Below, in pieces: positions 2,038-37,832 of a stretch of 38,682 nucleotides of DNA. A model generated the notes under the pieces. That model did not search any database. It was not told where the DNA came from and saw only the letters and a program-made list of their open reading frames with translations. Origin of the DNA: a phage; sequence record PQ400058.1; one strand, written 5' to 3'. Position numbers and translations under genes: made by a program. The first letter of the stretch is position 1; every line of letters starts with the position of its first letter.

Positions 2038-3117
2038 TCAGCCCATTAGCATTGCGTCAAGTTTCTTGTCAATGTTAAGCGGAAGACCGTTAGCGATAGC
2101 CATCCGGTCAGCTTGGAACCAGTGCGCTGCGATTCGTTCCTCAAGCGCCTTAAAGTCCTTAGCTAACATGTTAACCCAGAGCATAGCGTTATCGGTCCTT
2201 CCTAGTACATCTACAGCTACCTCATGGTTACGTCGCTCTTGACGTTCAGCCATTCGCCACGCAGCAACCATTCGCTTGTGCTTCGCTTGGTGTGCTTTAC
2301 GCGCCTTGCGGTTACGGCGCTTTACTTTGCGTGCCTCCAATCGGCCAACATGGCGTACTTTACGGTCCTTAGCGCGGTCTATTGCCTTCTGGCGTGCGGC
2401 TTCCTCGACTTCCTTGATGAGTTCCTCAGGGTCAATGCTGAACGAGCCGCCATCTTTCTTCTGCGAGAATGACACGGGGTCGGTAATGAATGGCGTACCA
2501 TCGTCACTGAACATGATGTTACCGCTGTGCATGTCGAATGAAGCGATGCCCTCAAAGAACTTGCGGATTAGCTTGCAAGTCTCGACGAACTCGCCATCCC
2601 ATCCAGTTAACATATCGTGCGCATCTGATTTGCAGTCAATGATGTCGCTTGCAATCTCAGCGTATTTATAGTGCTCATCGTTATCGTAACGCTCGCAATC
2701 ATTCAGCGCATCGAGAACAACCGTGTAGCACCCAGCGTGACGCTGTACATCGTAGACGTTAGGGATACCAGCACGGCCCTGATACATGCGGCAGAATGCG
2801 GTATACGCAGCGCCTGAGTCCTCTTTCTTAAAGCCCACCTTAATCACTCTGTTGGGCAGCAGTGGATGACTATAAGCAGCCGAGAAGTGACCATTGCCAA
2901 GCATCTTGAAACCAGCGTCAGCAGTGAGACACTTCAAGGTAGTCCACCAATCTTGATGCTCAAGTGCCTGATTCAGTTCGGTTATCTCGCCATCGCATGT
3001 CTCGCTGTTTACCATCTCAACCAGTAAGTCGATAAGCATACTCTGACGCTTGTCAATTTCACAGATTGGCAGCGCTTTGATTGCGTCGATAGCGTTCATG
3101 ATGTCGGTAATGTTCAC
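2038..3117 (-). CDS. 0.7: gp0.7-like serine/threonine protein kinase (host transcription shutoff)
   Basis: Track ORF 2038..3174; likely start is GTG at 3117 ([14 protein letters not shown]...), giving 359 aa as in T7; ATG at 3099 is an alternative. Confidence 0.85.
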
Positions 3118-3136
3118 TTTGTGTGCTCTCCAAAAG

Positions 3137-3289
3137 TTAGATTTTGTTAATCTTGCGGTTGATGCGCAGTTCACGCTTAAGGCGTTCGATTCGCTGTTTC
3201 ATTGCGAAACCATCAGGTGTGCATACAGTTGCCCCGTTGGACGTGTGGATAGGCATAACGTAGTGTTTCATACCATAGTGTTTCAGCAT
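3137..3289 (-). CDS. gp0.6-like small early protein ([50 protein letters not shown])
   Basis: In-frame ATGs at 3289 and 3271, stop TAA 3137-3139; GGGAG about 10 nt upstream of 3289; sits between 0.5 and 0.7 as in T7. Confidence 0.55.
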
Positions 3290-3411
3290 TTGCGCAGTGC
3301 TCCCGTGACGATACAAGCTACCAAGTAAGCGCCTATAGCTACACCCAAAGACTCCCCAAAGGATGCGCCTACAGCTAGACCTAGAGCGGTGAGTAGACCG
3401 ATAGTAAGCAT
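3283..3411 (-). CDS. gp0.5-like small hydrophobic protein ([42 protein letters not shown], 42 aa)
   Basis: ATG at 3411 with GGGAG 8 nt upstream (alternative ATG 3417), stop TGA 3283-3285; below track size cutoff, translated by hand. Confidence 0.6.
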   Translation of the reverse strand: MLTIGLLTALGLAVGASFGESLGVAIGAYLVACIVTGALRKC

Positions 3412-4756: not shown

Positions 4757-4902
4757 AGGGACAAGAAGAGACACCAAAAGGTAAACCCAAGGGTCAACCC
4801 CAACCCTTAGGGACCCTCAAAGTCAACTGAAAGTTGACTCAAGGTGATTGGCTGGACTTTAGGGACCCCTATGGGGGAACTTTAGGTCCGTAAACTGTGA
4901 GA
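4757..4902 (-). repeat. Genome terminal repeat, single collapsed copy at the concatemer or circular-assembly junction (boundaries approximate)
   Basis: Minus strand from 4902 reads TCTCACAGTTTACGGACCTAAAGTTCCCCCATAGGGG..., matching the recalled T7 left terminus; right-end unique sequence abuts at 4903. Confidence 0.6.
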
Positions 4903-5550: not shown

Positions 5551-7311
5551 TCACCACTCAATGAAAGACGTACCGTAACCCTCATCGTCCTCAGAGTATA
5601 CATCAACTCCTCCCACAGACATCTCAATGATGTGCGTAGCAGCGACCGTAGGGCGCATCATGTGCTCCTCAAGGAAGTCAGCAAGCACTTCACCTTCTAC
5701 CTTAACGGAATCCAACTGCATGGACTCGCGGAGATACTCAATGCCTAACGCAAGGGCATCCAATCGGTCATCATGTGCCAGAGCGCCTTTCTCACGAGTG
5801 ATACGGGTCATCTGGTAGAACAGTGAATACTTAACGTCATGCTTACCGTCTACGTCACGAGCGGACTGGTAGTCGGCCCTAATGACCTCATCACGAATGA
5901 CAAGGCGGTGAGTCTGCATGACTGGCTCAAGGGTATCACAAATACGCATCTCCTTCATACCACGAGCACGAATCTCCTCCATTGCACAGTTGTGGTGTTT
6001 AAGAAGGATAGGACTGAACACCTTACCAAACATGCCGTCACCGAAGTTACTCTCATAGACGACCGTCTGGACTCCCCATTGCTTAGCTTTCCTAGCGAGC
6101 AACTCAAGGGTCTTATCGGAGTAACCATCGCGGAAACCTCCAGCTTCCATTAGGTAGATGTAACCGTTCAGGGTGAACAGCACAGCGTAACCTGTTTCGT
6201 CCTTACCGCGACCACTAGGGTCAATGACCAGAATCTTCTGTTGGTACTGACCAGAGTTGTTGGAGCAATCATGGTAAGTATGCAGGTCATCACCCTTAAG
6301 GCCAACGTTAGGAAGGTCCTCAATGATGTTCTGACGGTTCGGAAGCCATTGGTAATGCATTGGAGCCTTCTCTAAGTCTAAGGCCGCTACGATAGCGTCA
6401 CGGAGCCTCAGAGGGTACTTCTCGGCATCACTCAGGTTCGGGTTAAGCATGAACTGTAGTGTGAAGCCAGCCTTACCGTATTCCAACTCACGCTCACGGA
6501 GGTCCTCTCGGTCGAAGCGCACAGGGTCCGTAGGAGTCCCGGCGAGGGCCTCAGGGTTCTCATCGTACTCAGCACGTAGCATAGGGGCAAGTCGCTGTGC
6601 GTAATAGAGGTTCTCTTCGCGAGTCCTTGGGTACAGAGCAGGCCAGATGATAGTGGTATACCCACGGTTATCCTCAAGTTCCTTATAGAGAGTCATCTCG
6701 GTCTGAGGTGTGCCAAGGTAGATAACACGAGAGGAAGGCAGCGGTTTAAGCAACGCAGCGAACTCCTGAACTAGAGTCCATAGCTTCTCACGGGCACCCA
6801 TAGTCGCACTGTTAGACGGAATCTCAACATCATCCGCAATGATAATGTCAGCACGGCTACCAGTTAACTGACCAGTGATACCTACCGATTTTACACTAGG
6901 AGAGTGGTCAGGGTTAGCTGGACCTACATCAAAGCTAATTACAGAATCACGCTGTCCGGGTCTTGGCTTCAATTCAGCAAGGAAAGGCAGCAGGTCAATG
7001 ATGTTCTTAATGAAGATGGAGTTAGCGTCTGCACGTTCCTTAGAGGCTGATACGATGAGTATCTTCAACTGAGGGTCTCTCCATAAGGACCACACAACGA
7101 ACGCACATGTGATGAACGACTTACCTATACCACGGAAAGCCTGTAGGATGAACTTCTTGTTGTCCCCATTCGCCAGTACCTTAGCCATGTCAATCTGACA
7201 CTTAGTGGGCACCGGAAGGTTTAACGCCTTCCACAATACGAACAGGAAGGCCACGAAGTCTCCTTTCAGTTGCGCCACTACGAGCGCATTACGATTGGAT
7301 TGAGTAGACAC
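5551..7311 (-). CDS. 19: Terminase large subunit (gp19)
   Basis: Track ORF 586 aa [22 protein letters not shown]...; GTG start at 7311 after TAAGGAGGT; same length as T7 gp19. Confidence 0.93.
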
Positions 7312-8390: not shown

Positions 8391-8915
8391 TTATTCCTCA
8401 GGCTTCTCAGGCCAGTCATAGAAAGGCAGTACACTCAGGTCTACTTTGTATACAGCAAGACGGTAAATTCGCCACGCGTTTAGGAGACCTTCTAATCCAT
8501 CCTCCCCAAGTGCCATGAAGTCAGCATACTGCTCAATCTTCTTGGAGGCCATAGAGACTAGACTAGCCTTCTGGTTCTCAAAGTATCGCGGATACCAAGT
8601 TAGCTTCTCACCATCCCACCACCACTGCATCATATTGTAACGAGAGTATTCAGCTGGGATTTCCTCAAGTTCAACAACACCAGCAGAACCCTGAACGGCT
8701 AACTCCTGAACATCCTGTTCACACTGAATTACCGAACCGTCTTTGGCATAGACAAGTTTCCATGTATCCTCACGGAATGTCTTACGTAGTTCATACCAGT
8801 CATTCCCATTCTCGTCCTTTGAGAAGCCAACTCCGTGGTCCAGAAGGTCTGCATTCTCTTTGGTGCGCTCTGGAATATAGTTTACGAAGTTCTTATAGTG
8901 GCGTAAAGTCTTCAT
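8391..8915 (-). CDS. Tail fibre assembly (Tfa-like) chaperone, 174 aa; not present in T7
   Basis: ATG 8915 with GGGGGAGGG RBS 16 nt after the gp17 stop; C-terminus ...LLNAWRIYRLAVYKVDLSVLPFYDWPEKPEE resembles the lambda Tfa C-terminus (...[29 protein letters not shown]) as recalled. Confidence 0.7.
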   Translation of the reverse strand: MKTLRHYKNFVNYIPERTKENADLLDHGVGFSKDENGNDWYELRKTFREDTWKLVYAKDGSVIQCEQDVQELAVQGSAGVVELEEIPAEYSRYNMMQWWWDGEKLTWYPRYFENQKASLVSMASKKIEQYADFMALGEDGLEGLLNAWRIYRLAVYKVDLSVLPFYDWPEKPEE

Positions 8916-8931
8916 GTTGTACCCTCCCCCT

Positions 8932-10608
8932 TTAGTAAATATTAAAGCGTTGACCATCGTTGCGTACATACTGCATAACACGCCACTGGCAACCATCTAC
9001 CGCACCATCAGCGTTACCGTTTGTGATTCCTGTGATCACCTTACCGCCACCATCTTCTATGCCGTAAGCATTCCACAGTTGCGACCAGTTAACTCCACCC
9101 ATCGCAATGTGGTTAACGGTATTTGCAACAAGCCAGCCAGCTAGATGACCATGACCACCCCATACAGAGCCTGCAATGTTTCCGTCAGTGGACATTGCGG
9201 CACCACCTGCCTTAATCGTAGTTGGGAATTGAACCTCGCCATTTGGGTTTAGCCAAATGTCATAAGATGTCGCTTGAGATGCTTCCGGTTTCCACCGGAT
9301 TAGGCCGTTGCCGTTCGTAGAACCACCTCGAACCCATCCAATTTCTAACCCTGCATCGTAGAAACTCCAACGAGTGTTACAGACCCATCCACCTTGGGTC
9401 AAATCACCCGGACCATATGCCACCGTCTTAACGGCAGTATTGGCCTGATTAGTAACACCTAGCGGTTTGTTGAATCCTTCTACCTGCAAACCATTGTAGC
9501 AATGCATGAAGTCCCCGAAGTGCATCTCCCACGTAGCCGAATCATTAGCTTTACTTTGAACCTGAAATGGAACATGCCAGTCCCCTCTATGTGGGTGCTT
9601 AATGGCCCAAAACGTATTTGATACATATTGTCCCTCAGCAGGGTTATACTCATGTACCATCTGCCCCATAGAGCCAGCTTCGGCAGTTGCCCTCAGGGTT
9701 GAAGCACGATTAGCAATAAGTTCACCGTTAAACTTAGCAGTAGCCGCCCACGAAACAACGTGGTCTTGGCTTACTTCCTCAATGGCACCTGCAAGTGCAT
9801 TCCAGTTACCAAGTTTGTCTGCCTCCAACTTAGCGCGGTCTGCTTGCTGTTCTGCCGAATGGGCAGAGTTAGCGGATGCCGTGGCATAGTTCTCAGCGTT
9901 TACCTCAGATTGATGCGCAGCAGTAGCAGAGTTACCAGCAGATGTAGCGTATTGACCAGCCGTATTCTTGAACTGCTCGGCTTCGTCTCTGAAACCCTTG
10001 GTCTCATCACGCCACTGCTTCGTATTCGTAGCGTTAGTGCTGGACTCGTTCTTAAAGCCCTCCGCTTGATTTCTGAAAGTCTCAGCCTCATTGCGGAACT
10101 GTAGGGCCTCATTACGCGCCTGCCATGAGTTCTGGTTCATGGTCTTAAGTTGACCAAACGGAACAGCGTCACGGTCATCCACGGCGTTCGCTAGGTTCAC
10201 AATTCGACGACCACGGGCATCCAAGTGACCATCATTATTGACACCGATAGTATCCGCAGTGAGGTCACGGGCCTCTTCTGCTACGTGCATCGTTTGAATC
10301 TGAGCGACGTTAAGGTCATATGCACGGAGGATTGAACCATCCGTAAAGTCAACCAATCGGTCTGTCGTGGAGGTTACTCGACGTAACTCAATGGTCGTGT
10401 AGCCATCAGCTGTACCCCAAGCCTTGGTCAGTGAGATGGTAGTGCGAGTAGCAAAGCGGTAGTCTGTATTAATAGTAAGGACCTTTCGGTCTACGCCAAT
10501 AAGGGTTACTACTACGAACTTACGGGCTAGATACTCAAACGGGATATTAAAATCACGAGTGGAGCCGTCTAACTGGTAAGTCAAAACGGTTTTAATTACG
10601 TTAGCCAT
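8932..10608 (-). CDS. 17: Tail fibre protein gp17, 558 aa: T7-like N-terminal attachment and coiled-coil region, non-T7 distal receptor-binding region
   Basis: Track ORF MANVIKTVLTYQLDGSTRDFNIPFEYLARKF...; matches recalled T7 gp17 to about residue 265 then diverges (…HPHRGDWH…GGHGHLAGW…QRFNIY). Confidence 0.9.
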   Translation of the reverse strand: MANVIKTVLTYQLDGSTRDFNIPFEYLARKFVVVTLIGVDRKVLTINTDYRFATRTTISLTKAWGTADGYTTIELRRVTSTTDRLVDFTDGSILRAYDLNVAQIQTMHVAEEARDLTADTIGVNNDGHLDARGRRIVNLANAVDDRDAVPFGQLKTMNQNSWQARNEALQFRNEAETFRNQAEGFKNESSTNATNTKQWRDETKGFRDEAEQFKNTAGQYATSAGNSATAAHQSEVNAENYATASANSAHSAEQQADRAKLEADKLGNWNALAGAIEEVSQDHVVSWAATAKFNGELIANRASTLRATAEAGSMGQMVHEYNPAEGQYVSNTFWAIKHPHRGDWHVPFQVQSKANDSATWEMHFGDFMHCYNGLQVEGFNKPLGVTNQANTAVKTVAYGPGDLTQGGWVCNTRWSFYDAGLEIGWVRGGSTNGNGLIRWKPEASQATSYDIWLNPNGEVQFPTTIKAGGAAMSTDGNIAGSVWGGHGHLAGWLVANTVNHIAMGGVNWSQLWNAYGIEDGGGKVITGITNGNADGAVDGCQWRVMQYVRNDGQRFNIY

Positions 10609-18040: not shown

Positions 18041-20431
18041 TTAAATACCGGAACTTCTCCGTAAGTAGTTACCTTCCCAGCCACACCCAATGATGTTCAG
18101 AGGGGTAGTCTCATCTGACAAGATGTATACTGTATTGAACTTGGCGTTGCCCACCACAGGGAATCGGTATTGTCCGGTCCCTAAGTTCAATCTCCCAGCC
18201 CTCAGAGCGTTAGAGCCTAATCGCGCGCCAGCCATTGTGTACTTCCAGTTGGACGATTGGTTCTCAACATAAATGTCAAATGTGCCAGACTCCTCATAGT
18301 TAACCCACGCTCGGCGTAACTGTAAACGACCAATGTCTTCCGTGGAGGTAGACCCATCGTCGGCAGTTTGCTTAATGAGGAACTTAGAGAACTCATAGAC
18401 GAAGTGTATGTTGAACCCAATGAACACTTCACGTCCCTCTAAGTTACCACTGAGTCTCAGCCAAGGGTCACTATTCCACCCACCAGTTGGTTGCTCACAT
18501 ACGGTTATCTTACCATCAGGCTCCAATACTGTGATTGTGTCCCTCCCGAAGTTTGCACCACCATAAATGGTTGGAATATGGATAGAGGTAGTGAACGTGT
18601 CATCGTTGTATGTTCCACTCGGAATCGTGTAGCGAATCTTCATGTCCATAAAGGCACGGTAAGGTTCACCTTGTAAATCAATGGCGTTCTTAGTGAAAGA
18701 GATTTTAGCTAGGAACGTATTGAATTCATTACGAAGAATAACGTACATATCTGAGTTGATGCTCTGGCACGCTAGAACCTGCACGTTTGCCCCAAAGTCC
18801 CAATGGGACCACGACTGTTGTCTTAACTCTTCGTTCAGGTACAGGAATTTGTACATGAAGATTTTACTTGGGTCCCCTTGAGATAGTACCGAACAGAAGT
18901 TTTCCGTACCACTGCCGCAAATACTAAACACACCATTTGGGATATAGTTAGGAACATGTGCTGTAATGTCCTCAGCGTTCTTAACGGAACTGACATCCTG
19001 CACAGCGTAGTACCTGTGGATGGACGTGTAGCTGGACCTCGGACTAGCAAAGTAGACATTACGCCCAATCCCATAAGGTCTCGCTCGGTCCTGTACATCA
19101 AACTGGGTCGTTAGGTTCAACTCAACTGACTTCGACGTGAGAGTACCGGAAGCAGTCAGGACGAACTGAGCTTCGTCTGACCAAATGAGCAACTCCTCAG
19201 AGAACGGAACGGCATACTTAAGGATTGCGATTCGGTTGGTACTCACAGCCACATCAATAGGGTCATCGTCACTCAAGTTAGCGATTGACGCTGGGTAGAA
19301 GTTGAAGTACTTAGCGGTTCTACTCAGGATGATATTCTCACCACTAAGGAAACCCAAACGGTTACGGAAGAAGAACACATCGTTGATTGTGGAGTCCATG
19401 AAGGAAGGCCATGGGTTTGTATCGTCATCACCGCAGGTTTTAGGGTTCCACTCAAGCCATCTGAACTCAAAGTTGCCATCAGAAGCCCTAACGAGTGCAT
19501 GTGGCATCGTTTCATATAGAAGCTGATTGTTAACGTTCCATCCCAGTGTCTCCACCCATACTTTGCGAGTAGCATCATATCTGACGTAATATTGATCAGC
19601 AGACTTTGACGCATCCCCTACGATTTTCACCATGTATCCATCAGGAGCGTTAGGTGGCAGCTTAGAGAACGACTGAGCGTAGTGAGTAACAGGATTAATC
19701 AACTGGTCCGCATAACCATCCTTAGTCACTAGGGAGTTAATCTCACCAGCAGCGTCAGCAATAATGTGAATGAAACCCTGTCCAACGTTAAAGGTCCATC
19801 CGGGAGTATTTGCCCGAAGTTGTCGCGCAAGTTCCTCAGCGAGCCATTGAGCATCCGTGTTATTAACATGTGCTGGCTGTGAGCCATCAGGAATCTGGTA
19901 GCTTGCTTGGGTTCCACCGTTTATCTGAATCTGTAGTGTTCTACCATATTGACCACCACGAACGTTGATTAGCGCATCCTTCTTAGGGTTAAACCCAGGA
20001 AGGTTTACCGAGTTGGGATTGCGTGCTACCCTTACGTTTCTGTTAACGATGAACGTATAATCAGCCACAGTGACCATCCTCAAGTCATTCCTTGGGTTTG
20101 CAGTGTTTATATACGAGGAACCATCTGTAGGGTATCGCACCTGTTTTTCGTTACCAGCAAGGTCAAACACACGGATTCCTGTCCCAGTGAACACAGCGTA
20201 ATACTGTTCGTTTTCGTCACGGTTAATCAGATGGATGTAAGGTGCTTGTCCTAAATCACCGCTTCCTCCTAGGGTCTTAAGGAAAACCATAGGTGGACGC
20301 TTTTGGAGGCCCTCGGTCTCCGAAGACCAACCGTTAACCTGACGTGACCCTTGGTCTGGATAACGAAGGATGTCAGGCTGTTGACTGATACCACCCTTCA
20401 AGTTCTTAATTGATTGGCTAATGAGTGCCAT
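18041..20431 (-). CDS. 12: Tail tubular protein B (gp12)
   Basis: Track ORF 796 aa MALISQSIKNLKGGISQQPDILRYPDQG... Confidence 0.93.
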   Translation of the reverse strand: MALISQSIKNLKGGISQQPDILRYPDQGSRQVNGWSSETEGLQKRPPMVFLKTLGGSGDLGQAPYIHLINRDENEQYYAVFTGTGIRVFDLAGNEKQVRYPTDGSSYINTANPRNDLRMVTVADYTFIVNRNVRVARNPNSVNLPGFNPKKDALINVRGGQYGRTLQIQINGGTQASYQIPDGSQPAHVNNTDAQWLAEELARQLRANTPGWTFNVGQGFIHIIADAAGEINSLVTKDGYADQLINPVTHYAQSFSKLPPNAPDGYMVKIVGDASKSADQYYVRYDATRKVWVETLGWNVNNQLLYETMPHALVRASDGNFEFRWLEWNPKTCGDDDTNPWPSFMDSTINDVFFFRNRLGFLSGENIILSRTAKYFNFYPASIANLSDDDPIDVAVSTNRIAILKYAVPFSEELLIWSDEAQFVLTASGTLTSKSVELNLTTQFDVQDRARPYGIGRNVYFASPRSSYTSIHRYYAVQDVSSVKNAEDITAHVPNYIPNGVFSICGSGTENFCSVLSQGDPSKIFMYKFLYLNEELRQQSWSHWDFGANVQVLACQSINSDMYVILRNEFNTFLAKISFTKNAIDLQGEPYRAFMDMKIRYTIPSGTYNDDTFTTSIHIPTIYGGANFGRDTITVLEPDGKITVCEQPTGGWNSDPWLRLSGNLEGREVFIGFNIHFVYEFSKFLIKQTADDGSTSTEDIGRLQLRRAWVNYEESGTFDIYVENQSSNWKYTMAGARLGSNALRAGRLNLGTGQYRFPVVGNAKFNTVYILSDETTPLNIIGCGWEGNYLRRSSGI

Positions 20432-23427: not shown

Positions 23428-25035
23428 AATGCCCGGCTGTAGACCTACGGAATCAGCAGCAGCAGCCATAGCCTCAGGTGAAGCTGTAGCCTGTGCAGCC
23501 ATACCTTGAGCCAGCGCAGCAGCACCATTATCCATACCCATTTGCATAGACTGTTGGGCCATCTTCTGTTGCTTCTGTTCTTCGGTGAGAAGGATACCAG
23601 AAGTGTCAATACCGATAGCGTTCGCAATGCGCAACTTAATCATCGCAAGGTTGATGTCAGGGTCATCGCGCATAGGAGCTAGGGCAGCCCACGCAGTGAC
23701 ACAACGCTCCAACTTATCAAGGTCTTGACCTCGACCAATTGCTTCCAGACCTGTACTAATAGTTGGCTCTACGGCTTCCTTAGGTAACTCAGGAATCTGT
23801 TGCGTGGCTTGTAGTTGCTTCAAGAGCACTCGTACCAGAGGCAATTGTAATTCTTGAGAAAGGATAGAGTAGACACCGCCCAGAGTATCTTCAAGTTCAG
23901 AAGCTACATACCGAATCTCTTCGGCGGTCACACGTTCGCCTGTACGCTGAACCGCAGAGTTCAACATGAAGGCAAACGAAAGGCGAGCCTCGATAGCGTC
24001 ACTTACGGCTTTAGCTACAGTAAAGTCTGCTTGCTTCTCCAGTTGGAGGAACGAGATGTCTTCTGGACGACCTGTAACGAAGTCACCAGTCTGAGCTTTG
24101 GTAAGTCGGCGTGGCTGGGTGATACCAGCAGGATTCACTAAGCCGATAACCTTAGAGCTAATCATGGACATCTTGACGATAGCCTCTTGGAGATTCTCAA
24201 GGGACCGTAAGTCACCTAAGTATTCCTCAATGTACGAACGACCGTAGGATTCACCATCCAGACGAACCATTCGAATCGGGATGTATGGGCAAGCCTCTTT
24301 AGGGTAAGACCCATCGGAGCCTTGTATCTCCATACCTTCAACCTCTTCGTAGCGGAGATATTCGTCTGACTCTTCGTCCAAGTAAATGTGAGTGTACACA
24401 TCAATGGTCTCATCAGGTTTCTTCTCGCCGCCTTGACCTTCTACAGCCTTACGGATGTCCTCAGGGAGAGCACCAAAAGCTATCTGGTCACGAGTCACCA
24501 TTTGCAGAACGTTGCCGAATGCGTCTCGTTGGACCACATAAGAAGACAATCGGTACAGCTTCATGGGATTATAGTTTGACCCTTCTGGTTCCGGTAGGTA
24601 CAGCAGGACGTTACCAGCTACGACTAACTGCTTGAGAGCCTCAAAGAGAGTCACTCGGTAACTGTTAGACTCAATGTAGTTCATGATGATACGCTCTACC
24701 ATCGAGAGACCCTCATCGACCTTAGCGAGTCCATCGGGGTCGTCCAGTAACTGTTTAGCCTCATACTCAGAGATGGTCAGCTTCATCCACGTTTGCATCG
24801 GGAAGAGAGCCAGCATGAGCTTAGAGGCCAAGTTATTGAGACCGCGAGCACCCACAGCTTGCCACGGAGTCGTGTAGTCTGTTGATGCGTTATCGGAATC
24901 CTTAGGGAAGAGGGACGGAATGGTGTACTGAGCGCAGTTTTGAGCACGAGTCTCATACGGAGCGCGGTCGTTCTTCAATCGCTCATAGACCGACTTTGCG
25001 CCTTCCTCGGCTAGACCTGTACGCTTCTCAGCCAT
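23425..25035 (-). CDS. 8: Portal (head-tail connector) protein gp8
   Basis: Track ORF 536 aa MAEKRTGLAEEGAKSVYERLKNDRAPYETRAQN... Confidence 0.93.
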   Translation of the reverse strand: MAEKRTGLAEEGAKSVYERLKNDRAPYETRAQNCAQYTIPSLFPKDSDNASTDYTTPWQAVGARGLNNLASKLMLALFPMQTWMKLTISEYEAKQLLDDPDGLAKVDEGLSMVERIIMNYIESNSYRVTLFEALKQLVVAGNVLLYLPEPEGSNYNPMKLYRLSSYVVQRDAFGNVLQMVTRDQIAFGALPEDIRKAVEGQGGEKKPDETIDVYTHIYLDEESDEYLRYEEVEGMEIQGSDGSYPKEACPYIPIRMVRLDGESYGRSYIEEYLGDLRSLENLQEAIVKMSMISSKVIGLVNPAGITQPRRLTKAQTGDFVTGRPEDISFLQLEKQADFTVAKAVSDAIEARLSFAFMLNSAVQRTGERVTAEEIRYVASELEDTLGGVYSILSQELQLPLVRVLLKQLQATQQIPELPKEAVEPTISTGLEAIGRGQDLDKLERCVTAWAALAPMRDDPDINLAMIKLRIANAIGIDTSGILLTEEQKQQKMAQQSMQMGMDNGAAALAQGMAAQATASPEAMAAAADSVGLQPGI

Positions 25036-25049
25036 GTGTCACCTCCTGA

Positions 25050-28036: not shown

Positions 28037-28055
28037 AATAATTTCTCCTATAGAA

Positions 28056-31217: not shown

Positions 31218-32924
<1,707 letters not shown>

Positions 32925-32986
32925 TCAAGTTAGACATGGCCTCTATAGCTTCCTCCTTGTGTTGAAAGAAAGGGAAACCGTTGTGG

Positions 32987-33466: not shown

Positions 33467-33921
33467 TATTTCTTTCCTCCCTTCGATTGTTTCAGCTTGT
33501 CAAATGGCACCTCCTTTTTGGGTTCTTTGAGCCATTCTACAGGAATTAATTTGTCAGCAAACAGAATACCATGCTTCTCACACCATTCACCGTAACTGGT
33601 CGGAGACCCTTTGTACAGCTTGGTGCGCGAGCTTGAGAACACCAGTCGGATGTCCAGTTCAGGAAACTGTTCGCGAATCAATAAGTGTTTCTTTCGGTCG
33701 TCACTCTCCCATAAACCTTTGGTTTCAATAAAGATTCCGTTAGGCAGCAGGAAGTCTGGAGTATACACATGGTTGCTCGCAGGGACAACGTAAGGGATTT
33801 TCCACAGTTCATAGTCGAACTTAATTCCCTTACCCTCTAGCTGCTTAGAGACCTTATCTTCTAGGCCGGAACGGAATGTCCCGACCTTTCTGATACCACG
33901 CGCAGCGTATGCGCCAGCCAC
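33466..33921 (-). CDS. 3: Endonuclease I gp3 (Holliday-junction resolvase)
   Basis: Track ORF 151 aa (M)AGAYAARGIRKVGTFRSGLEDKVSK...; GTG start directly after the gp2.5 stop (TAAGTG). Confidence 0.88.
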   Translation of the reverse strand: MAGAYAARGIRKVGTFRSGLEDKVSKQLEGKGIKFDYELWKIPYVVPASNHVYTPDFLLPNGIFIETKGLWESDDRKKHLLIREQFPELDIRLVFSSSRTKLYKGSPTSYGEWCEKHGILFADKLIPVEWLKEPKKEVPFDKLKQSKGGKK

Positions 33922-35004: not shown

Positions 35005-35533
35005 AGCACTTATCCTTATGTTTCTCATACAGTTCACCATAGAATCCAGCTTTCGCCATGTCTTTCTCTAAGTAAGCCAGTTCTGACTTCTTACCAGCGC
35101 GTAGGCGGTACTTAAGGATGTTCCCTAAGCAATATCCTTTGAACTGCTCACGAGTCATTGAACGGGCAATCACTTCGATAGCCTCAATGTCGTCGAACAG
35201 CATGTAATGGGAAGGCTTAGTGACACCTTCAATTGACTCAGCGGAAGGCTGGTCATCTGTCGGAGTTACCTCAAGTTTATTCAGATGAGGCTTACGCGGG
35301 TCCATCGCTCGGATTTCACCTAAGGTTATCTTTTGATCATTGTTTGCGGGGCAGAGGTGGCAAGGGACATTTGAGCAGAGCATCCCGCAGCCATTCAAAT
35401 CATCCGGGCGACCATCGTTATTGTCTACCAACTTCATGATCATCTCTTGTTCACGTTCGGTCATACTGTTAGCTCCTTTATTACAGGTGTGTGGATAACG
35501 GTCGTCTTTCTCTAAGCAAGCTATGCATCCCAT
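34994..35533 (-). CDS. 1.7: gp1.7 nucleotide kinase
   Basis: Track ORF 179 aa [31 protein letters not shown]...; GGAGG RBS; the N-terminal extension I recall for T7 gp1.7 is not present. Confidence 0.85.
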
Positions 35534-35793
35534 CAGAACACCTCCTTGATACGTTTGAGTAACAGACGGACGAACGGGAAGCGGGTCACTGCCACACTAA
35601 GAACCGGACGTTTCTTGTCTATTGCTTTCTCAAAGTCACCACGGGTGATAATGATGTGGACGCTCGGTGCCAGAGGAACTGTGTTACCAATGAGAGGTAA
35701 CTTAGCTCGGCGCTCGCTCGCACATACGATTGAACGGTCAGCACGGCGAACCGTGAAATTCTCAAGACTTTTGTTGTAATGAAGTCGAAACAT
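35533..35793 (-). CDS. 1.6: gp1.6
   Basis: Track ORF 86 aa [36 protein letters not shown]... Confidence 0.88.
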
Positions 35794-35915: not shown

Positions 35916-35938
35916 ACCTCCTTTAGTGAGTCGTATTA
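35916..35938 (-). promoter_or_regulatory. T7 RNAP promoter phi1.5
   Basis: Minus strand TAATACGACTCACTAAAGGAGGT. Confidence 0.85.
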
Positions 35939-35975: not shown

Positions 35976-36995
35976 TTACATCTTCTCTTGAGGGTTGTCC
36001 TCGGTGCCACGGAAGCAGGTGAAGGAGGGGTGTCTGAGACTCCCATCGTTAGTTACCTCCATAAATCCAATCTGGCAAGCCCAGCCATTATAGTAGTCCT
36101 CGCCATGTTCTTTAACGTTAGCTGTAAATTCATCCATTAAGGCGCGAGAGATGTTATTGGCATCGACAAGACGACCAGTCTCAAGAAGCACCTTGAATCC
36201 AATTACCTTACCTTCGTTAGCAAGTCCTTCTGTTCCCCAGTTTACACCATTAATGATTCCGTCAGCTTCCTCAAGAGGCTTAAGTTTCCACCAGCCGGAC
36301 TTCTTACCGCGCTTGTAGATGCACATCGGGTCTTTCACAATGAGACCCTCATGTCCTTCTTCACGCTTCTTCTCGTACAGTTGCTGTAGTTCTACCATAT
36401 CGTAGACCTCGTAAGACTCAGCCGCTTGCCATTCGATTTCAGGGAAGTATTCCTGTAGCAGAGGCAGCATGTTCTTAACGTGTTCCTGCATGAGCAACGT
36501 CATGACATCACAGTCTTCCCCAGACTCCACGATGTGCAGAGGGAGGATAGCGTACAGTCGGACACTCAGATGTTTGGTATCCAACGCGAACTCAACCTTG
36601 GACCCCTTGAGTGGTGGTACACCGCCAACGTCGAACTCAAAGTTATTCTTGTTGAGCCACTTGGTACGCAGTAGGCCGGACCCTGTGTTAAAGTCTACGC
36701 CCTTGACCATTAGTTCCCCATCGAGCATAAAGCCATCCTTGTAGAAACAACGGTCATCGTTAAGCAGACGCTTCCAGCGAACATCAAACCCGTTTAAGTG
36801 CTCCAGTGCCGGAATCGTTTTAGATACACGAGAGAGCCAGCAACTGTTAGCTGTATTGTCTACGCAGATGTTACCGCGCACACCATCGTACTTAATGTCA
36901 GCGATAAGATACCCAGCGTTATCCAGAGCTTTCTTAATGGCAGACTCTACGAAAGATACTGCCTTGTATGGTGAAGTCTTAAAGTTAATAATCAT
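35976..36995 (-). CDS. 1.3: ATP-dependent DNA ligase gp1.3
   Basis: Track ORF 339 aa MIINFKTSPYKAVSFVESAIKKALDNAGYLIADIKYDGVRGN... (KYDGVR ligase motif I). Confidence 0.93.
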   Translation of the reverse strand: MIINFKTSPYKAVSFVESAIKKALDNAGYLIADIKYDGVRGNICVDNTANSCWLSRVSKTIPALEHLNGFDVRWKRLLNDDRCFYKDGFMLDGELMVKGVDFNTGSGLLRTKWLNKNNFEFDVGGVPPLKGSKVEFALDTKHLSVRLYAILPLHIVESGEDCDVMTLLMQEHVKNMLPLLQEYFPEIEWQAAESYEVYDMVELQQLYEKKREEGHEGLIVKDPMCIYKRGKKSGWWKLKPLEEADGIINGVNWGTEGLANEGKVIGFKVLLETGRLVDANNISRALMDEFTANVKEHGEDYYNGWACQIGFMEVTNDGSLRHPSFTCFRGTEDNPQEKM

Positions 36996-37405
36996 ATGTA
37001 TTTCCTCAGTTTGCCATTTCGTATGTAGTGTATTGTTGAAGCAGCCACATTAAGTGCCCTTGCTAGCTCCCTGCCGGAGCGAGGGTCCGTCCGTATCATA
37101 TCGACCTGCTCATTAGTTATCTTTCTAGCACCACGGCCTTTGATAGCCATGTCTCTAAGGTTGTCTGCCTGTGTGCCCTTGGTTAGATGTGCAGGATTTA
37201 CACACCACCTATTGTCACAGGAGTGTAGGACTATATCGCTCTTATTCAACTCACCGTTGAACAGAATGTACGAAGCCCTATGGGCATATATAGGCTTACC
37301 ATGCAGGCGGAACCGTCCGTAACCATTGGGCTGGATACTACCAATCCAACGCAAACAGTCACCACATGGTTCGGTCTTATTGTTGAATCGTTCTATGTCG
37401 TTCAT
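36992..37405 (-). CDS. HNH-family (homing-type) endonuclease, 137 aa; not at this locus in T7
   Basis: Track ORF MNDIERFNNKTEPCGDCLRW...HGKPIYAHRASYILFNGELNKSDIVLHSCDNRWCVNPAHL...; HNH motif; ATG 5 nt after phi1.3; stop overlaps ligase ATG (ATGA). Confidence 0.85.
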   Translation of the reverse strand: MNDIERFNNKTEPCGDCLRWIGSIQPNGYGRFRLHGKPIYAHRASYILFNGELNKSDIVLHSCDNRWCVNPAHLTKGTQADNLRDMAIKGRGARKITNEQVDMIRTDPRSGRELARALNVAASTIHYIRNGKLRKYI

Positions 37406-37409
37406 TGGT

Positions 37410-37432
37410 TTACCCTATACTGAGTCGTATTA
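37410..37432 (-). promoter_or_regulatory. T7 RNAP promoter phi1.3
   Basis: Minus strand TAATACGACTCAGTATAGGGTAA; overlaps the gene 1.2 stop. Confidence 0.85.
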
Positions 37433-37702
37433 CTTCCAGTGCTTCATATCACTGTGAACCTTACGGAGCCATTCCGTCTGTGCATTACAGCGAACGTCTT
37501 CGTCTGACTGTTCGAAACACTTAGCGGTCAGCATTAAGCCATCCCGTAAGACCACTCTAAGTGTCTCTCCGGCGACCATCCGTCGCTGTGTAAAATCCTC
37601 ATAGCGATAAGCCTCAACTACCACATTTGCATCGTGGTCTTCTTTAAGTCGTTCGATAGCATCTTTGTATGCTGCTAGATTTCCGCTGTATAAACGTCCC
37701 AT
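37430..37702 (-). CDS. 1.2: gp1.2-like protein (host dGTPase inhibitor in T7), 90 aa
   Basis: ATG 37702 one nt after the 1.1 stop; MGRLYSGNLAAYKDAIERLKEDHD...KHWK; N-terminus and position as T7 gp1.2. Confidence 0.75.
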   Translation of the reverse strand: MGRLYSGNLAAYKDAIERLKEDHDANVVVEAYRYEDFTQRRMVAGETLRVVLRDGLMLTAKCFEQSDEDVRCNAQTEWLRKVHSDMKHWK

Positions 37703-37703
37703 C

Positions 37704-37832
37704 TTATTTACCCTCCCAGCAGCGTTTATGCACACGGGTGCGTAATGGTTTATTAAACTTGCGGCCCTTAGTTGCCTCGAAGTCATTAGCGTTACGGTTA
37801 GAACGTTTGGCAATCTTTTCGAAGTTACGCAT
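37704..37832 (-). CDS. 1.1: gp1.1, 42 aa basic protein
   Basis: Hand translation MRNFEKIAKRSNRNANDFEATKGRKFNKPLRTRVHKRCWEGK; ATG 37832 with GAGAGGA RBS. Confidence 0.8.
   Translation of the reverse strand: MRNFEKIAKRSNRNANDFEATKGRKFNKPLRTRVHKRCWEGK

Follow-up and report, generated by a model that had tools for sequence, protein, structure and literature searches.

In phage T7, genes 1.2 and 1.3 are separated by an interval of 80 nt, in which the promoter phi1.3 is the sole annotated feature. In the sequence analysed here (the window: the whole 38,682-nt stretch of record PQ400058.1, a complete T7-like genome) the same interval holds an open reading frame (ORF) for an HNH protein, which raises the question of what kind of gene this is and how it came to lie directly in front of the DNA ligase gene. 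The ORF, its neighbours and the associated signals are listed in Table 1. A sequence-only reading of the window had described an ORF of 137 aa whose stop codon overlaps the ligase start, and both points are correct: the ORF begins with ATG and lies on the minus strand (unmentioned in that reading), and the HNH TGA (36994..36992) and the ligase ATG (36995..36993) together read ATGA. The same reading had taken the T7 interval to contain phi1.3 and an RNase III site only. The T7 annotation includes phi1.3 alone, while the RNase III site, R1.3, is annotated in the corresponding interval of Yersinia phage R.

Table 1. Features at the gene 1.2/ligase junction of the window (positions are those of the whole stretch)
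Feature	Coordinates	Strand	Description or basis
Gene 1.3, ATP-dependent DNA ligase, 339 aa	35976..36995	-	Pfam DNA_ligase_A_M 5e-33, DNA_ligase_C 1e-35
First ~39 nt of ligase gene, co-varying with HNH allele A; right cassette border	36957..36995	-	Sequence comparison
ATGA, overlap of ligase start codon and HNH stop codon	36992..36995	-	Read from sequence
HNH ORF, 137 aa plus stop, ATG start	36992..37405	-	Probable free-standing HNH (His-Me finger) homing-endonuclease gene
C-terminal three-helix helix-turn-helix DNA-binding domain (predicted), residues 93-137	36995..37129	-	AF2 model
Ligase Shine-Dalgarno GAGGA, inside the final HNH codons, 7 nt before the ligase ATG	37003..37007	-	Read from sequence
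Nuclease domain, residues 1-92: N-terminal beta strands and beta-beta-alpha-metal core	37130..37405	-	
Leader GGGTAAACCA, 10 nt, +1 to HNH ATG	37406..37415	-	
phi1.3-type T7 RNA polymerase promoter TAATACGACTCAGTATAGGGTAA, 23 bp	37410..37432	-	Consensus match
Gene 1.2, dGTPase inhibitor, 90 aa, upstream neighbour	37430..37702	-	

Eleven matches to the T7 promoter consensus were found in the window, the phi1.3-type one included, against a chance expectation of 0. The promoter in front of the HNH gene is identical to T7 phi1.3 at every base from -17 to +3; position 37415 is its +1 G, and the stop codon of gene 1.2 is supplied by the first TAA in the promoter. The HNH gene lies directly downstream, within the early/class II transcription unit. 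Its adjacency to phi1.3 had been recognized earlier, with a spacing of 5 nt; the distance is 4 nt from the promoter end to the ATG, or 10 nt from +1. Since the leader is this short and the Shine-Dalgarno sequence of the HNH gene (GGGU) is weak, expression of the HNH gene from phi1.3 is uncertain. The R1.3 hairpin of phages with an empty site is missing from the window junction, and folding of positions 37330-37470 on the minus strand revealed no RNA hairpin that would occlude the HNH start or substitute for the RNase III site (z = 0.05).

Both gene 1.2 and the ligase gene are intact around the insertion. The ligase start in HNH-less phages already reads ATGATG, and the GAGGA of the window aligns with the AGGAGA ribosome-binding site of the empty sites. 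The HNH ORF ends on the ligase-start ATGA, and ligase expression is therefore preserved.

The assignment of the ORF to the HNH nucleases in the sequence-only reading agrees with the profile searches. Pfam PF13392 (HNH_3) was matched above its threshold (E = 8.1e-08, 32.2 bits, cut-off 24.8, residues 40-84), and no other HNH family of Pfam, the PF01844 type included, was matched; PF05551 (zf-His_Me_endon) scored slightly under its cut-off (24.4 bits, cut-off 27). Eight HNH families of PHROG were matched, among them PHROG 59 ‘HNH endonuclease’ at 2.2e-29. A search of NCBIfam matched no family, and a sequence search of the PDB gave spurious matches only (E of 0.07 or worse). The exact protein sequence is absent from the public collections searched, where the nearest sequence is 98% identical. 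A terminase-helper function, as for the HNH protein HK97 gp74, was considered and rejected, given the position in the early region beside the ligase gene and a domain of the HNH_3 type only.

The window protein has the beta-beta-alpha-metal fold of the HNH_3/His-Me finger nucleases. The invariant residues of its nuclease domain are C17, Y29, G30, H42, H61, C63, C68, H73, G77, N82 and D85. All of 64 homologues have H61 and N82, and at least 90% of them have N70; all three residues lie within the HNH_3 match. By homology only, H61, N70 and N82 are assigned as the putative catalytic H-N-N, and the Cys and His residues as putative zinc ligands; the Cys/His-rich loop HSCDNRWCVNPAHL (residues 61-74) is similar to the loop that binds zinc in I-PpoI-type enzymes (Pfam PF05551).

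The AlphaFold model of the protein resembles both I-HmuI and I-PpoI. For I-HmuI (PDB 1u3e), a nicking HNH homing endonuclease that Bacillus phage SPO1 encodes in an intron, Foldseek aligned 154 columns with a probability of 0.99, at a sequence identity of 17-22%. The I-HmuI architecture of an N-terminal beta DNA-binding region, an HNH core and a C-terminal helix-turn-helix (HTH) is present in the model, in which the C-terminal helices span residues 98-106, 111-118 and 122-129 and the C-terminal domain matches the HTH domains of Tc3/IS transposases, Hin/resolvase and sigma region 4. However, the I-HmuI gene lies within a group I intron, whereas the window gene is free-standing and occupies the space between genes 1.2 and 1.3 without splitting any gene.

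Many homing-endonuclease genes (HEGs) degenerate once they are fixed, and the weak start context of the HNH gene could point the same way, to a decaying or catalytically dead relic, or to a protein that now acts purely as a DNA-binding regulator via its HTH. This is very improbable, as the ORF is intact and full-length in all carriers checked, all residues invariant across the 64 homologues are kept, dN/dS among carriers is 0.15-0.25, far under 1, and the structure model is confident and compact.

The relationship to the HNH genes of T7 was then considered. The sequence-only reading had named 3.8, 5.3 and 7.7 as the HNH-like loci of T7 and had found them empty here; all three are indeed absent from the window, and T7 2.8 and 1.4 are missing too, but gp5.3 is a PD-(D/E)XK protein and not an HNH protein. 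The two closest T7 homologues of the window protein are gp7.7 (BLASTP, 38% identity, E = 1.6e-25, query residues 16-137) and gp2.8 (39% identity, E = 3.4e-22), the latter not listed in that reading. Both are full-length homologues with the same two-domain architecture, and both match HNH_3 and zf-His_Me_endon, as the window protein does. The gene for gp7.7 lies between 7.3 and 8 and that for gp2.8 between 2.5 and 3 in T7; both loci are empty in the window, the T7 intervals 9860-10278 and 19843-20240 being deleted, and the window gene is not orthologous by position to either. A relocated T7 gene was rejected as the origin of the ORF, because gp7.7 and gp2.8 are too divergent to be its source, gp3.8 is alike in motif only and gp5.3 belongs to another fold family; the alignments instead indicate a distant, paralogue-like homologue of gp7.7 and gp2.8.

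No second HNH gene was detected in the window, where a profile of the 64 homologues searched against the six-frame translation matched this ORF alone. In a synteny comparison with T7, the unexplained segments longer than 250 nt were the tail-fibre C-terminus and the Tfa gene only. T7 genes 3.8, 5.3 and 7.7 are dispensable (PMC12153263), and HNH genes whose presence varies among T3/T7 relatives have been described as parasitic homing nucleases (PMC11680406; PMC4925675). In the literature no report was found of cleavage, homing or a target site for the window protein or its close homologues, nor any functional study of the window gene or of T7 gp7.7 and gp2.8 as homing enzymes.

The suggestion that the endonuclease occupies a new locus fails, because the same arrangement is already present and annotated in Bas104 and further phages, in several of them as ‘HNH endonuclease’ or ‘endonuclease’. 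Bas104 is the closest relative, with an HNH protein 95.6% identical in amino acids and the same order of gene 1.2, promoter, HNH gene, ATGA and ligase gene. Carriers of the allele present in the window (allele A, 90-96% amino acid identity) are Bas104 (XPK40403.1), vB_YenP_WW2 (UYE95489.1) and ESh1 (URY10656.1), as well as ESh3, and carriers of a second allele (allele B, 57-66% amino acid identity) are Yanou (UTQ78047.1), 64795_ec1 (YP_009291484.1), Patroon (QBQ72876.1) and ECA2 (YP_009786132.1). More distant proteins occupy the junction in Przondovirus IME205 (YP_009785866.1; 41% amino acid identity for the Przondovirus clade) and Minipunavirus phiA020 (WVX92139.1). The locus is thus filled in four genera (Teseptimavirus, Teetrevirus, Przondovirus and Minipunavirus), by proteins of 137-142 aa. 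The promoter-ORF-ATGA-ligase layout was found at the junctions read in Bas104, WW2, ESh1, Yanou, 64795_ec1, Patroon and ECA2, and the ATGA overlap recurs in these phages and in IME205; in the Teetrevirus phages Patroon and ECA2 the HNH gene sits behind the T3-type promoter of that genus. A 2.6-kb Logan metagenome contig encodes a 98% identical relative in the same layout.

In IMG/VR the sole close relative is 64795_ec1, and 15 more distant homologues do not adjoin a ligase gene; homologues at 55% identity or less sit in unrelated genomic contexts, as predicted for a mobile family. A search of complete E. coli genomes gave no nucleotide match to the HNH gene, which argues against a prophage or host origin.

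An empty site with the R1.3 hairpin is found in Bas103, JeanTinguely, EG1, Yersinia phage R and T7. Filled sites (the window, Bas104, WW2, ESh1/3, Yanou and 64795_ec1) and empty sites therefore occur among phages that are 90-93% identical overall, with clean borders between insert and backbone. Among the 235 records that match the region, allele A is present in 4 and any allele at 57% identity or more in about 20; within Teseptimavirus the empty state with conserved R1.3 is the large majority and the HNH-filled state a minority. The sequence-only reading had stated that an ORF standard at this position in close T7 relatives would count against it, and the picture is divided: the closest relative has the ORF, which recurs in four genera, but only in a minority of Teseptimavirus. 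The window gene is a new sequence in a known, ordinary group, and the same insertion has already been annotated elsewhere.

Taken together, the ORF is probably a free-standing HEG of the HNH_3/His-Me finger type with a C-terminal HTH, carried in a cassette of ~460 bp that is predicted to home. The cassette extends from ~+4 of phi1.3 to ~nt 40 of the ligase gene and takes up the spacer in which most T7 relatives have the ligase ribosome-binding site and R1.3, the RNase III hairpin. In carriers of allele B the insert is flanked by AACCAAT at its left and by AATAGGAGAT at its right end, and since these strings are contiguous in T7, as CCAATAGGAGAT, the insertion site can be pinpointed. In the window, the AACCAAT(G) of the HNH leader matches the AACCAAT found in front of the ligase Shine-Dalgarno of phages without the HNH gene. 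Two features typical of HEGs are seen here: a presence/absence polymorphism at one locus in collinear relatives, with discrete borders, and an intergenic insertion that spares its neighbours, the ligase Shine-Dalgarno being kept in the 3' end of the HEG.

At the right border, the ligase N-terminus reads MIINFKTSPYKAV in allele A versus MMNIKTxPFKAV at empty sites. Nucleotides 1-60 of the ligase gene are 97-100% identical to other allele-A carriers and 75-80% identical to empty-site phages, while over nucleotides 61-120 the identity to Bas103 and JeanTinguely, which have an empty site, is 97%. On the other side, the allele type of gene 1.2 is unlinked to the HNH allele, and the linkage break lies at the promoter. 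The first ~39 nt of the ligase gene are thus a candidate for a tract of co-conversion, a patch for self-immunity, or both. For allele A, the pattern is suggestive of co-conversion of ~40 nt of the ligase gene, and in two genera allele-B carriers have the tract TCCTTTGTTGAGTC in common; ordinary mosaic recombination could also yield such tracts.

Mosaic recombination at promoters is also part of a different explanation, in which the ORF is a non-mobile, ancestral Studiervirinae gene of the 1.2/1.3 interval that was repeatedly lost or replaced by R1.3. The nucleotide identity of the HNH gene to other carriers is 92-98%, versus 90-93% for the backbone, and since the former is barely above the latter, part of the distribution could stem from vertical inheritance combined with losses or allele replacement instead of recent homing. 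Such fairly close tracking of the backbone would be expected of an ancestral gene, as would the use of one locus in four genera and the coincidence of the linkage break with a T7 promoter, a conserved 23-mer. We nevertheless regard this explanation as improbable: the R1.3 empty state prevails in Teseptimavirus, short tracts at the ligase 5' end change together with the HNH allele, in the way that gene conversion would leave them, the distant homologues lie in unrelated contexts, and the structural relatives of the protein are bona fide homing endonucleases.

For a homing cassette, we propose the following sequence of events. During co-infection of a carrier with an empty-allele relative, the enzyme would bind its target via the HTH and the N-terminal beta-sheet, and would then nick or cut in the vicinity of the 5' end of the ligase gene or of the 1.2/1.3 junction. 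Repair by recombination would transfer the cassette, along with a short stretch of flanking DNA, to the recipient phage. In the carrier itself, the insertion, the recoding of the first ~13 ligase codons, or both would shield the site from the enzyme. From established knowledge, the behavioural analogue is provided by the seg and mob HEGs of T4, which are likewise intergenic between conserved genes, overlap or are coupled with the downstream gene, and are present in some relatives and missing from others; their co-conversion of flanking markers would have its counterpart in the candidate ligase tract of the window. The T4 seg genes encode GIY-YIG enzymes and the mob genes HNH enzymes, yet the mob genes are unrelated in sequence to the window gene at the level tested.

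The nuclease could instead be kept because it benefits the phage, for example as a weapon of interference competition that cuts the genomes of cassette-less T7-like co-infectors or as an accessory nuclease for host DNA, with copying of the gene being secondary. The enzyme would be mechanistically identical to that of a homing cassette. Purifying selection on the gene is consistent with such a benefit, and so are its placement in the early/class II unit beside replication genes and its presence as the sole HNH-type gene in an otherwise HEG-free genome. However, most close relatives grow without the gene, host DNA breakdown in T7 is already served by gp3 and gp6, and in four genera the gene is tied to the ligase junction, as site-specific homing predicts; a gene retained chiefly for phage benefit is thus considered unlikely.

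The two alleles differ mainly in their C-terminal part. Between A and B the nuclease domains are 68-79% identical and the HTH domains 36-40% identical in amino acids, nucleotide similarity between the window HNH gene and allele B stops at nt 269, and the HTH of allele A is as diverged from that of allele B as from that of T7 gp7.7. Allele A also travels with the recoded first ~13 codons of the ligase gene. We tentatively raise the possibility, itself rather doubtful, that allele A is a re-targeted version of the ligase-junction HEG. If its HTH recognizes the common sequence that codes for MMNIKTxPFKAV in HEG-less ligase genes and the recoded patch confers immunity, this would be a natural case of specificity switching by domain replacement with linked immunity, and would let the window phage attack co-infecting T7 relatives.

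With regard to applications, the dispensable-looking 0.4-kb cassette marks a candidate insertion site for phage engineering, and the enzyme, if site-specific, could serve as a new rare-cutting or nicking reagent. Within the BASEL collection, the carrier Bas104 and the non-carriers Bas103 and JeanTinguely offer a ready pair for studies of homing and marker exclusion in T7-like phages. The importance of the finding beyond annotation is small, with cassette borders defined within a few bases; for the Studiervirinae, it identifies the gene 1.2/ligase junction as a place where one clade of probable HNH homing endonucleases has landed repeatedly, in four genera.

The sequence-only reading had placed an HNH endonuclease gene between promoter phi1.3 and the ligase gene, with its stop codon overlapping the ligase start, and direct reading of the sequence confirmed all three elements on the minus strand. 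The promoter matches T7 phi1.3 from -17 to +3 with no mismatch, and is among 11 sites of the window that fit the 23-bp T7 promoter consensus (0 expected by chance). The first TAA of its 23-mer doubles as the stop codon of gene 1.2, which a mechanically called 127-aa TTG ORF (37430-37813) over-extends into gene 1.1. Transcription from the +1 G at 37415 gives the HNH ATG (37405) a 10-nt leader, GGGUAAACCA, and folding detected no RNA structure near the HNH start (z = 0.05). At the other end, the HNH stop and the start of the downstream ORF, an ATP-dependent DNA ligase, share an ATGA (36995..36992, minus strand), and the ligase Shine-Dalgarno GAGGA lies inside the HNH coding sequence, 7 nt upstream of the ligase ATG. 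The 80-nt gap between genes 1.2 and 1.3 of T7 has phi1.3 as its sole annotation, and the same interval in Yersinia phage R is annotated with phi1.3 and the R1.3 RNase III site.

Features of the window and positions of T7 genes missing from it
Feature	Coordinates	Strand	Description
HNH ORF	36992..37405	-	ATG start, 137 aa; HSCDNRWCVNPAHL at residues 61-74
phi1.3-type promoter	37432..37410	-	TAATACGACTCAGTATAGGGTAA; directly upstream of the HNH ORF
Gene 1.2	37430..37702	-	90 aa; dGTPase inhibitor; Pfam T7-like_gp12 match
Gene 1.1	37704-37832	-	Pfam Phage_1_1
T7 gene 2.8, missing	33897-33918		clean, near-seamless deletion vs T7
T7 gene 3.8, missing	~32741-32966		as for 2.8
T7 gene 5.3, missing	28053-28055		as for 2.8
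T7 gene 7.7, missing	25035-25041		as for 2.8
T7 gene 1.4, missing	35937-35938		as for 2.8
Tail-fibre gene	8391-10608 (region including next ORF)	-	558 aa; T7-type N-terminal domain, non-T7 C-terminal region
Tail-fibre assembly ORF	within 8391-10608	-	201 aa; Caudo_TAP match; follows and overlaps tail-fibre gene; no T7 counterpart

The HNH motif claimed for the product was borne out by profile search: residues 40-84 match Pfam HNH_3 (32.2 bits, gathering threshold 24.8), and eight PHROG HNH endonuclease families match the ORF (best 2e-29); the score for the Pfam family 'zinc-binding loop of homing endonuclease' was just under threshold. HNH_3 is present in all 66 homologues found among 5.8 billion proteins, and two alignments, of 43 and 64 sequences, show no variation at C17, Y29, G30, H42, H61, C63, C68, H73, G77, N82 and D85. 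An AlphaFold2 model from the homologue alignment is confident (pLDDT 92.4, pTM 0.70), with residues ~93-137 forming a three-helix helix-turn-helix (HTH) that resembles Tc3/IS transposases, Hin/resolvase and sigma region 4 by structure comparison. The profile matches, invariant residues and fold identify the product as a His-Me-finger nuclease of two domains, the C-terminal one an HTH; H61/N70/N82 were assigned by homology as a putative H-N-N triad, and Cys/His residues as a putative structural zinc site. Sequence search of the PDB returned no relatives, NCBIfam holds no model for the protein, and 5,426 E. coli genomes yielded no match to the gene. Every carrier checked has an intact ORF, with pairwise Nei-Gojobori dN/dS of 0.15-0.24 for the more diverged pairs of the window-type allele (allele A) and 0.11-0.15 for pairs of a diverged type (allele B). 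That the gene is a dead relic is unlikely, because selection and the invariant residues count against it; it is a conserved, selected gene for a predicted His-Me/HNH nuclease with an HTH.

T7 loci 3.8, 5.3 and 7.7, listed in the sequence-only reading as HNH-like, are indeed empty in the window. Pfam places gp3.8 and gp7.7 in HNH_3, as listed, but gp5.3 in PD-(D/E)XK, so 5.3 was wrongly listed; gp2.8, which that list overlooked, is also HNH_3. All four T7 endonuclease-like accessory genes are gone, and the HNH gene at the ligase junction is the only such gene: it is the sole match of the T7 endonuclease-like proteins to the window by tblastn, and a family profile HMM found no second family copy in the six-frame translation. 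T7 genes 3.8, 5.3 and 7.7 are dispensable (PMC12153263). Similarity to gp7.7 (38% identity, E 1.6e-25) and to gp2.8 (39%, E 3.4e-22) extends along the entire HNH protein, which does not align with gp3.8. A relocated T7 gene was rejected, since identity of only 38-39% to gp7.7 and gp2.8 makes it a family member at another locus.

BLASTN against T7 (V01146) showed the window (1-38682) to hold an entire T7-like genome, circularly permuted and in minus-strand orientation, that is collinear with T7 (80-94% identity), the left and right T7 ends joining at ~4771-4902. The closest deposited phage is Escherichia phage AnnaIndermaur_Bas104 (92.8% identity, 98% of a 24.7-kb query covered), followed by Yanou, WW2, ESh1/3, EG1, 13a, 64795_ec1, JeanTinguely and Bas103; with only 92.8% identity to Bas104, the window phage is probably a distinct Teseptimavirus species. 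A tail-fibre arrangement comparable to that in the window is reported for Bas103 in the BASEL paper (PMC11990801), and the tail-fibre region hints at a different receptor, possibly O-antigen. The gp1.6 homologue (35533-35793, minus strand, 86 aa) matches Pfam BC10, 'Bladder cancer-related protein BC10' (3.6e-23), an odd family link between phage and eukaryote; its equivalents in ECA2 and IME205 are 'BC10 family protein' in RefSeq.

In a tblastn search of 50,697 phage records, other phages proved to have this gene at this junction too, its end always lying on the ligase start or overlapping it. Allele A is carried by Bas104 (95.6% amino acid identity), WW2 (92.0%) and ESh1/ESh3 (90.5%), and allele B (57-66%) by Teseptimavirus phages (Yanou, 64795_ec1, PDP351P2), Teetrevirus-like phages (Patroon, ECA2, E-2, E-4, Bumbleweed, mtp1/14/15, ESh12, CT02 and others) and Minipunavirus phiA020. 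Annotation tables list gene 1.2, HNH and ligase in this order for Bas104, WW2, ESh1, Yanou, 64795_ec1, Patroon and ECA2; for phiA020 the order is small hypothetical ORF - HNH - ligase. A 41%-identical clade has the same position, confirmed for Przondovirus IME205, with the same tblastn match in ~30 more Klebsiella phage records, and a protein 98% identical to that of the window is encoded, in this layout, on a Logan metagenome contig. In public records, several of these genes already bear the name 'HNH endonuclease'. The gene is missing from most Teseptimavirus records; 235 records match the junction region, at least 80% of which is spanned in only 5, and nucleotide similarity to the HNH ORF occurs in only 21 records of the whole phage collection. 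With annotated carriers in several genera and few of many records, the ligase junction is therefore a known, sporadically occupied site, and existing annotated genomes refute the suggestion that it is a new locus. None of the distant IMG/VR homologues adjoins a ligase. In Klebsiella phage Patroon, a second, unrelated small HNH endonuclease gene (3034-3333 of locus L007) lies just downstream of the ligase, so both ligase flanks are occupied by homing-endonuclease genes (HEGs).

Empty sites were read in T7, Bas103, JeanTinguely, EG1 and Yersinia phage R, where the promoter is followed by ACAATGCTTAAGGTCGC...GTGGCCTTAGTCATT (R1.3 hairpin), TAACCAAT/AGGAGAT (ligase ribosome-binding site) and ATGATG. 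Filled sites lack the hairpin, and have the promoter GGG, a few bases and then AACCAATG, the source of the HNH start. The ORF ends ...AAGAATAGGAGATTTGT ATGA in allele-B carriers, whose flanks AACCAAT (left) and AATAGGAGAT (right) are contiguous in T7 as CCAATAGGAGAT, which puts the site of the original insertion at ~T7 nt 6460, with the hairpin on one side and the ligase Shine-Dalgarno on the other. The HNH ORF runs through the native ligase ribosome-binding site and ends on a TGA already within the ATGATG of these empty alleles; as read from the gene layout, the arrangement preserves ligase expression. At the junctions examined, each genus has its own promoter upstream: Teseptimavirus a T7-type one, Patroon and ECA2 a T3-type one (TAACCCTCACTAACAGGAGA). 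The purine-rich +1 region of the promoter (GGGAGA, GGAGGA, AGGAGA) serves also as the HNH Shine-Dalgarno in most carriers, the window having a weaker GGGUAA. Just upstream of the empty phi1.3/R1.3 site of Escherichia phage EG1 (598-1136 of locus L011) are two tandem genes annotated dGTP triphosphohydrolase inhibitor, either a duplicated gene 1.2 or two adjoining alleles.

Compared segment by segment, allele-A carriers are 91-100% identical to one another across the HNH ORF and over ligase nt 1-60. These 60 nt of the window are only 75-80% identical to empty-site phages, whereas from nt 61 onward its ligase is 92-97% identical to empty-site Bas103 and JeanTinguely; the last allele-specific difference in the nucleotide alignment is at ~36957. 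The ligase N-terminal peptide is MIINFKTSPYKAV in carriers and MMNIKTxPFKAV in empty sites, and a TCCTTTGTTGAGTC tract in the ligase is common to allele-B carriers of two genera and absent from empty sites. Upstream, one HNH allele lies beside two very different gene 1.2 alleles, Bas103-type (window, Bas104) and T7-type (WW2, ESh1), with 51-64% identity between window and WW2 on this side, and its linkage therefore breaks at the promoter. This break and the end of the ligase tract would delimit a mobile unit of ~460 bp (roughly 37412 to 36957), and the short ligase tract looks like a candidate co-conversion tract and/or immunity patch. Vertical descent with repeated replacement could also account for the distribution, HNH identity (92-98%) being only modestly above backbone identity (90-93%). 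The window gene 1.2 is of the Bas103/JeanTinguely type, not T7 (3' half ~48% identical to T7); since the BASEL paper links sensitivity to PifA (F exclusion) with the allele of gp1.2 (PMC11990801), the window phage may escape PifA.

Alleles A and B are 68-79% identical in the nuclease domain and only 36-40% in the HTH domain (36995-37129, minus strand), where allele A is at least as far from allele B as from T7 gp7.7, and their nucleotide similarity stops abruptly at nt 269. This pattern suggests that the recognition domain was replaced as a module or diverged rapidly, and looks like a recognition-domain swap within one HEG lineage.

The gene sits in an intergenic cassette whose borders are discrete; close relatives differ in whether the site is filled, and it is occupied repeatedly in different genera. 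The original reading as an HNH gene and a mobile element is supported. In the standard model for free-standing HEGs, known from the T4 seg/mob genes and I-HmuI, the empty allele is cut and repaired from the carrier. The HNH gene would be transcribed with the early/class II genes, both from phi1.3 and by polymerases reading on from promoters further upstream, and its translation would be modest; in mixed infection, the enzyme would nick or cut empty-allele DNA close to the junction or to the 5' end of the ligase gene, and repair off the carrier genome would copy the cassette with a short flank. HNH genes varying among T3/T7 relatives have been described as parasitic homing nucleases (PMC11680406), and likewise termed so elsewhere (PMC4925675); our literature search turned up no work on the function of this gene or of its close homologues. 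The enzyme could instead owe its retention chiefly to a role as competition weapon or accessory nuclease, with the same biochemistry but a different selective account. As a mobile HNH element, the window gene is new as a sequence (at most 98% identical to known genes), but the kind of element and its site are already known.
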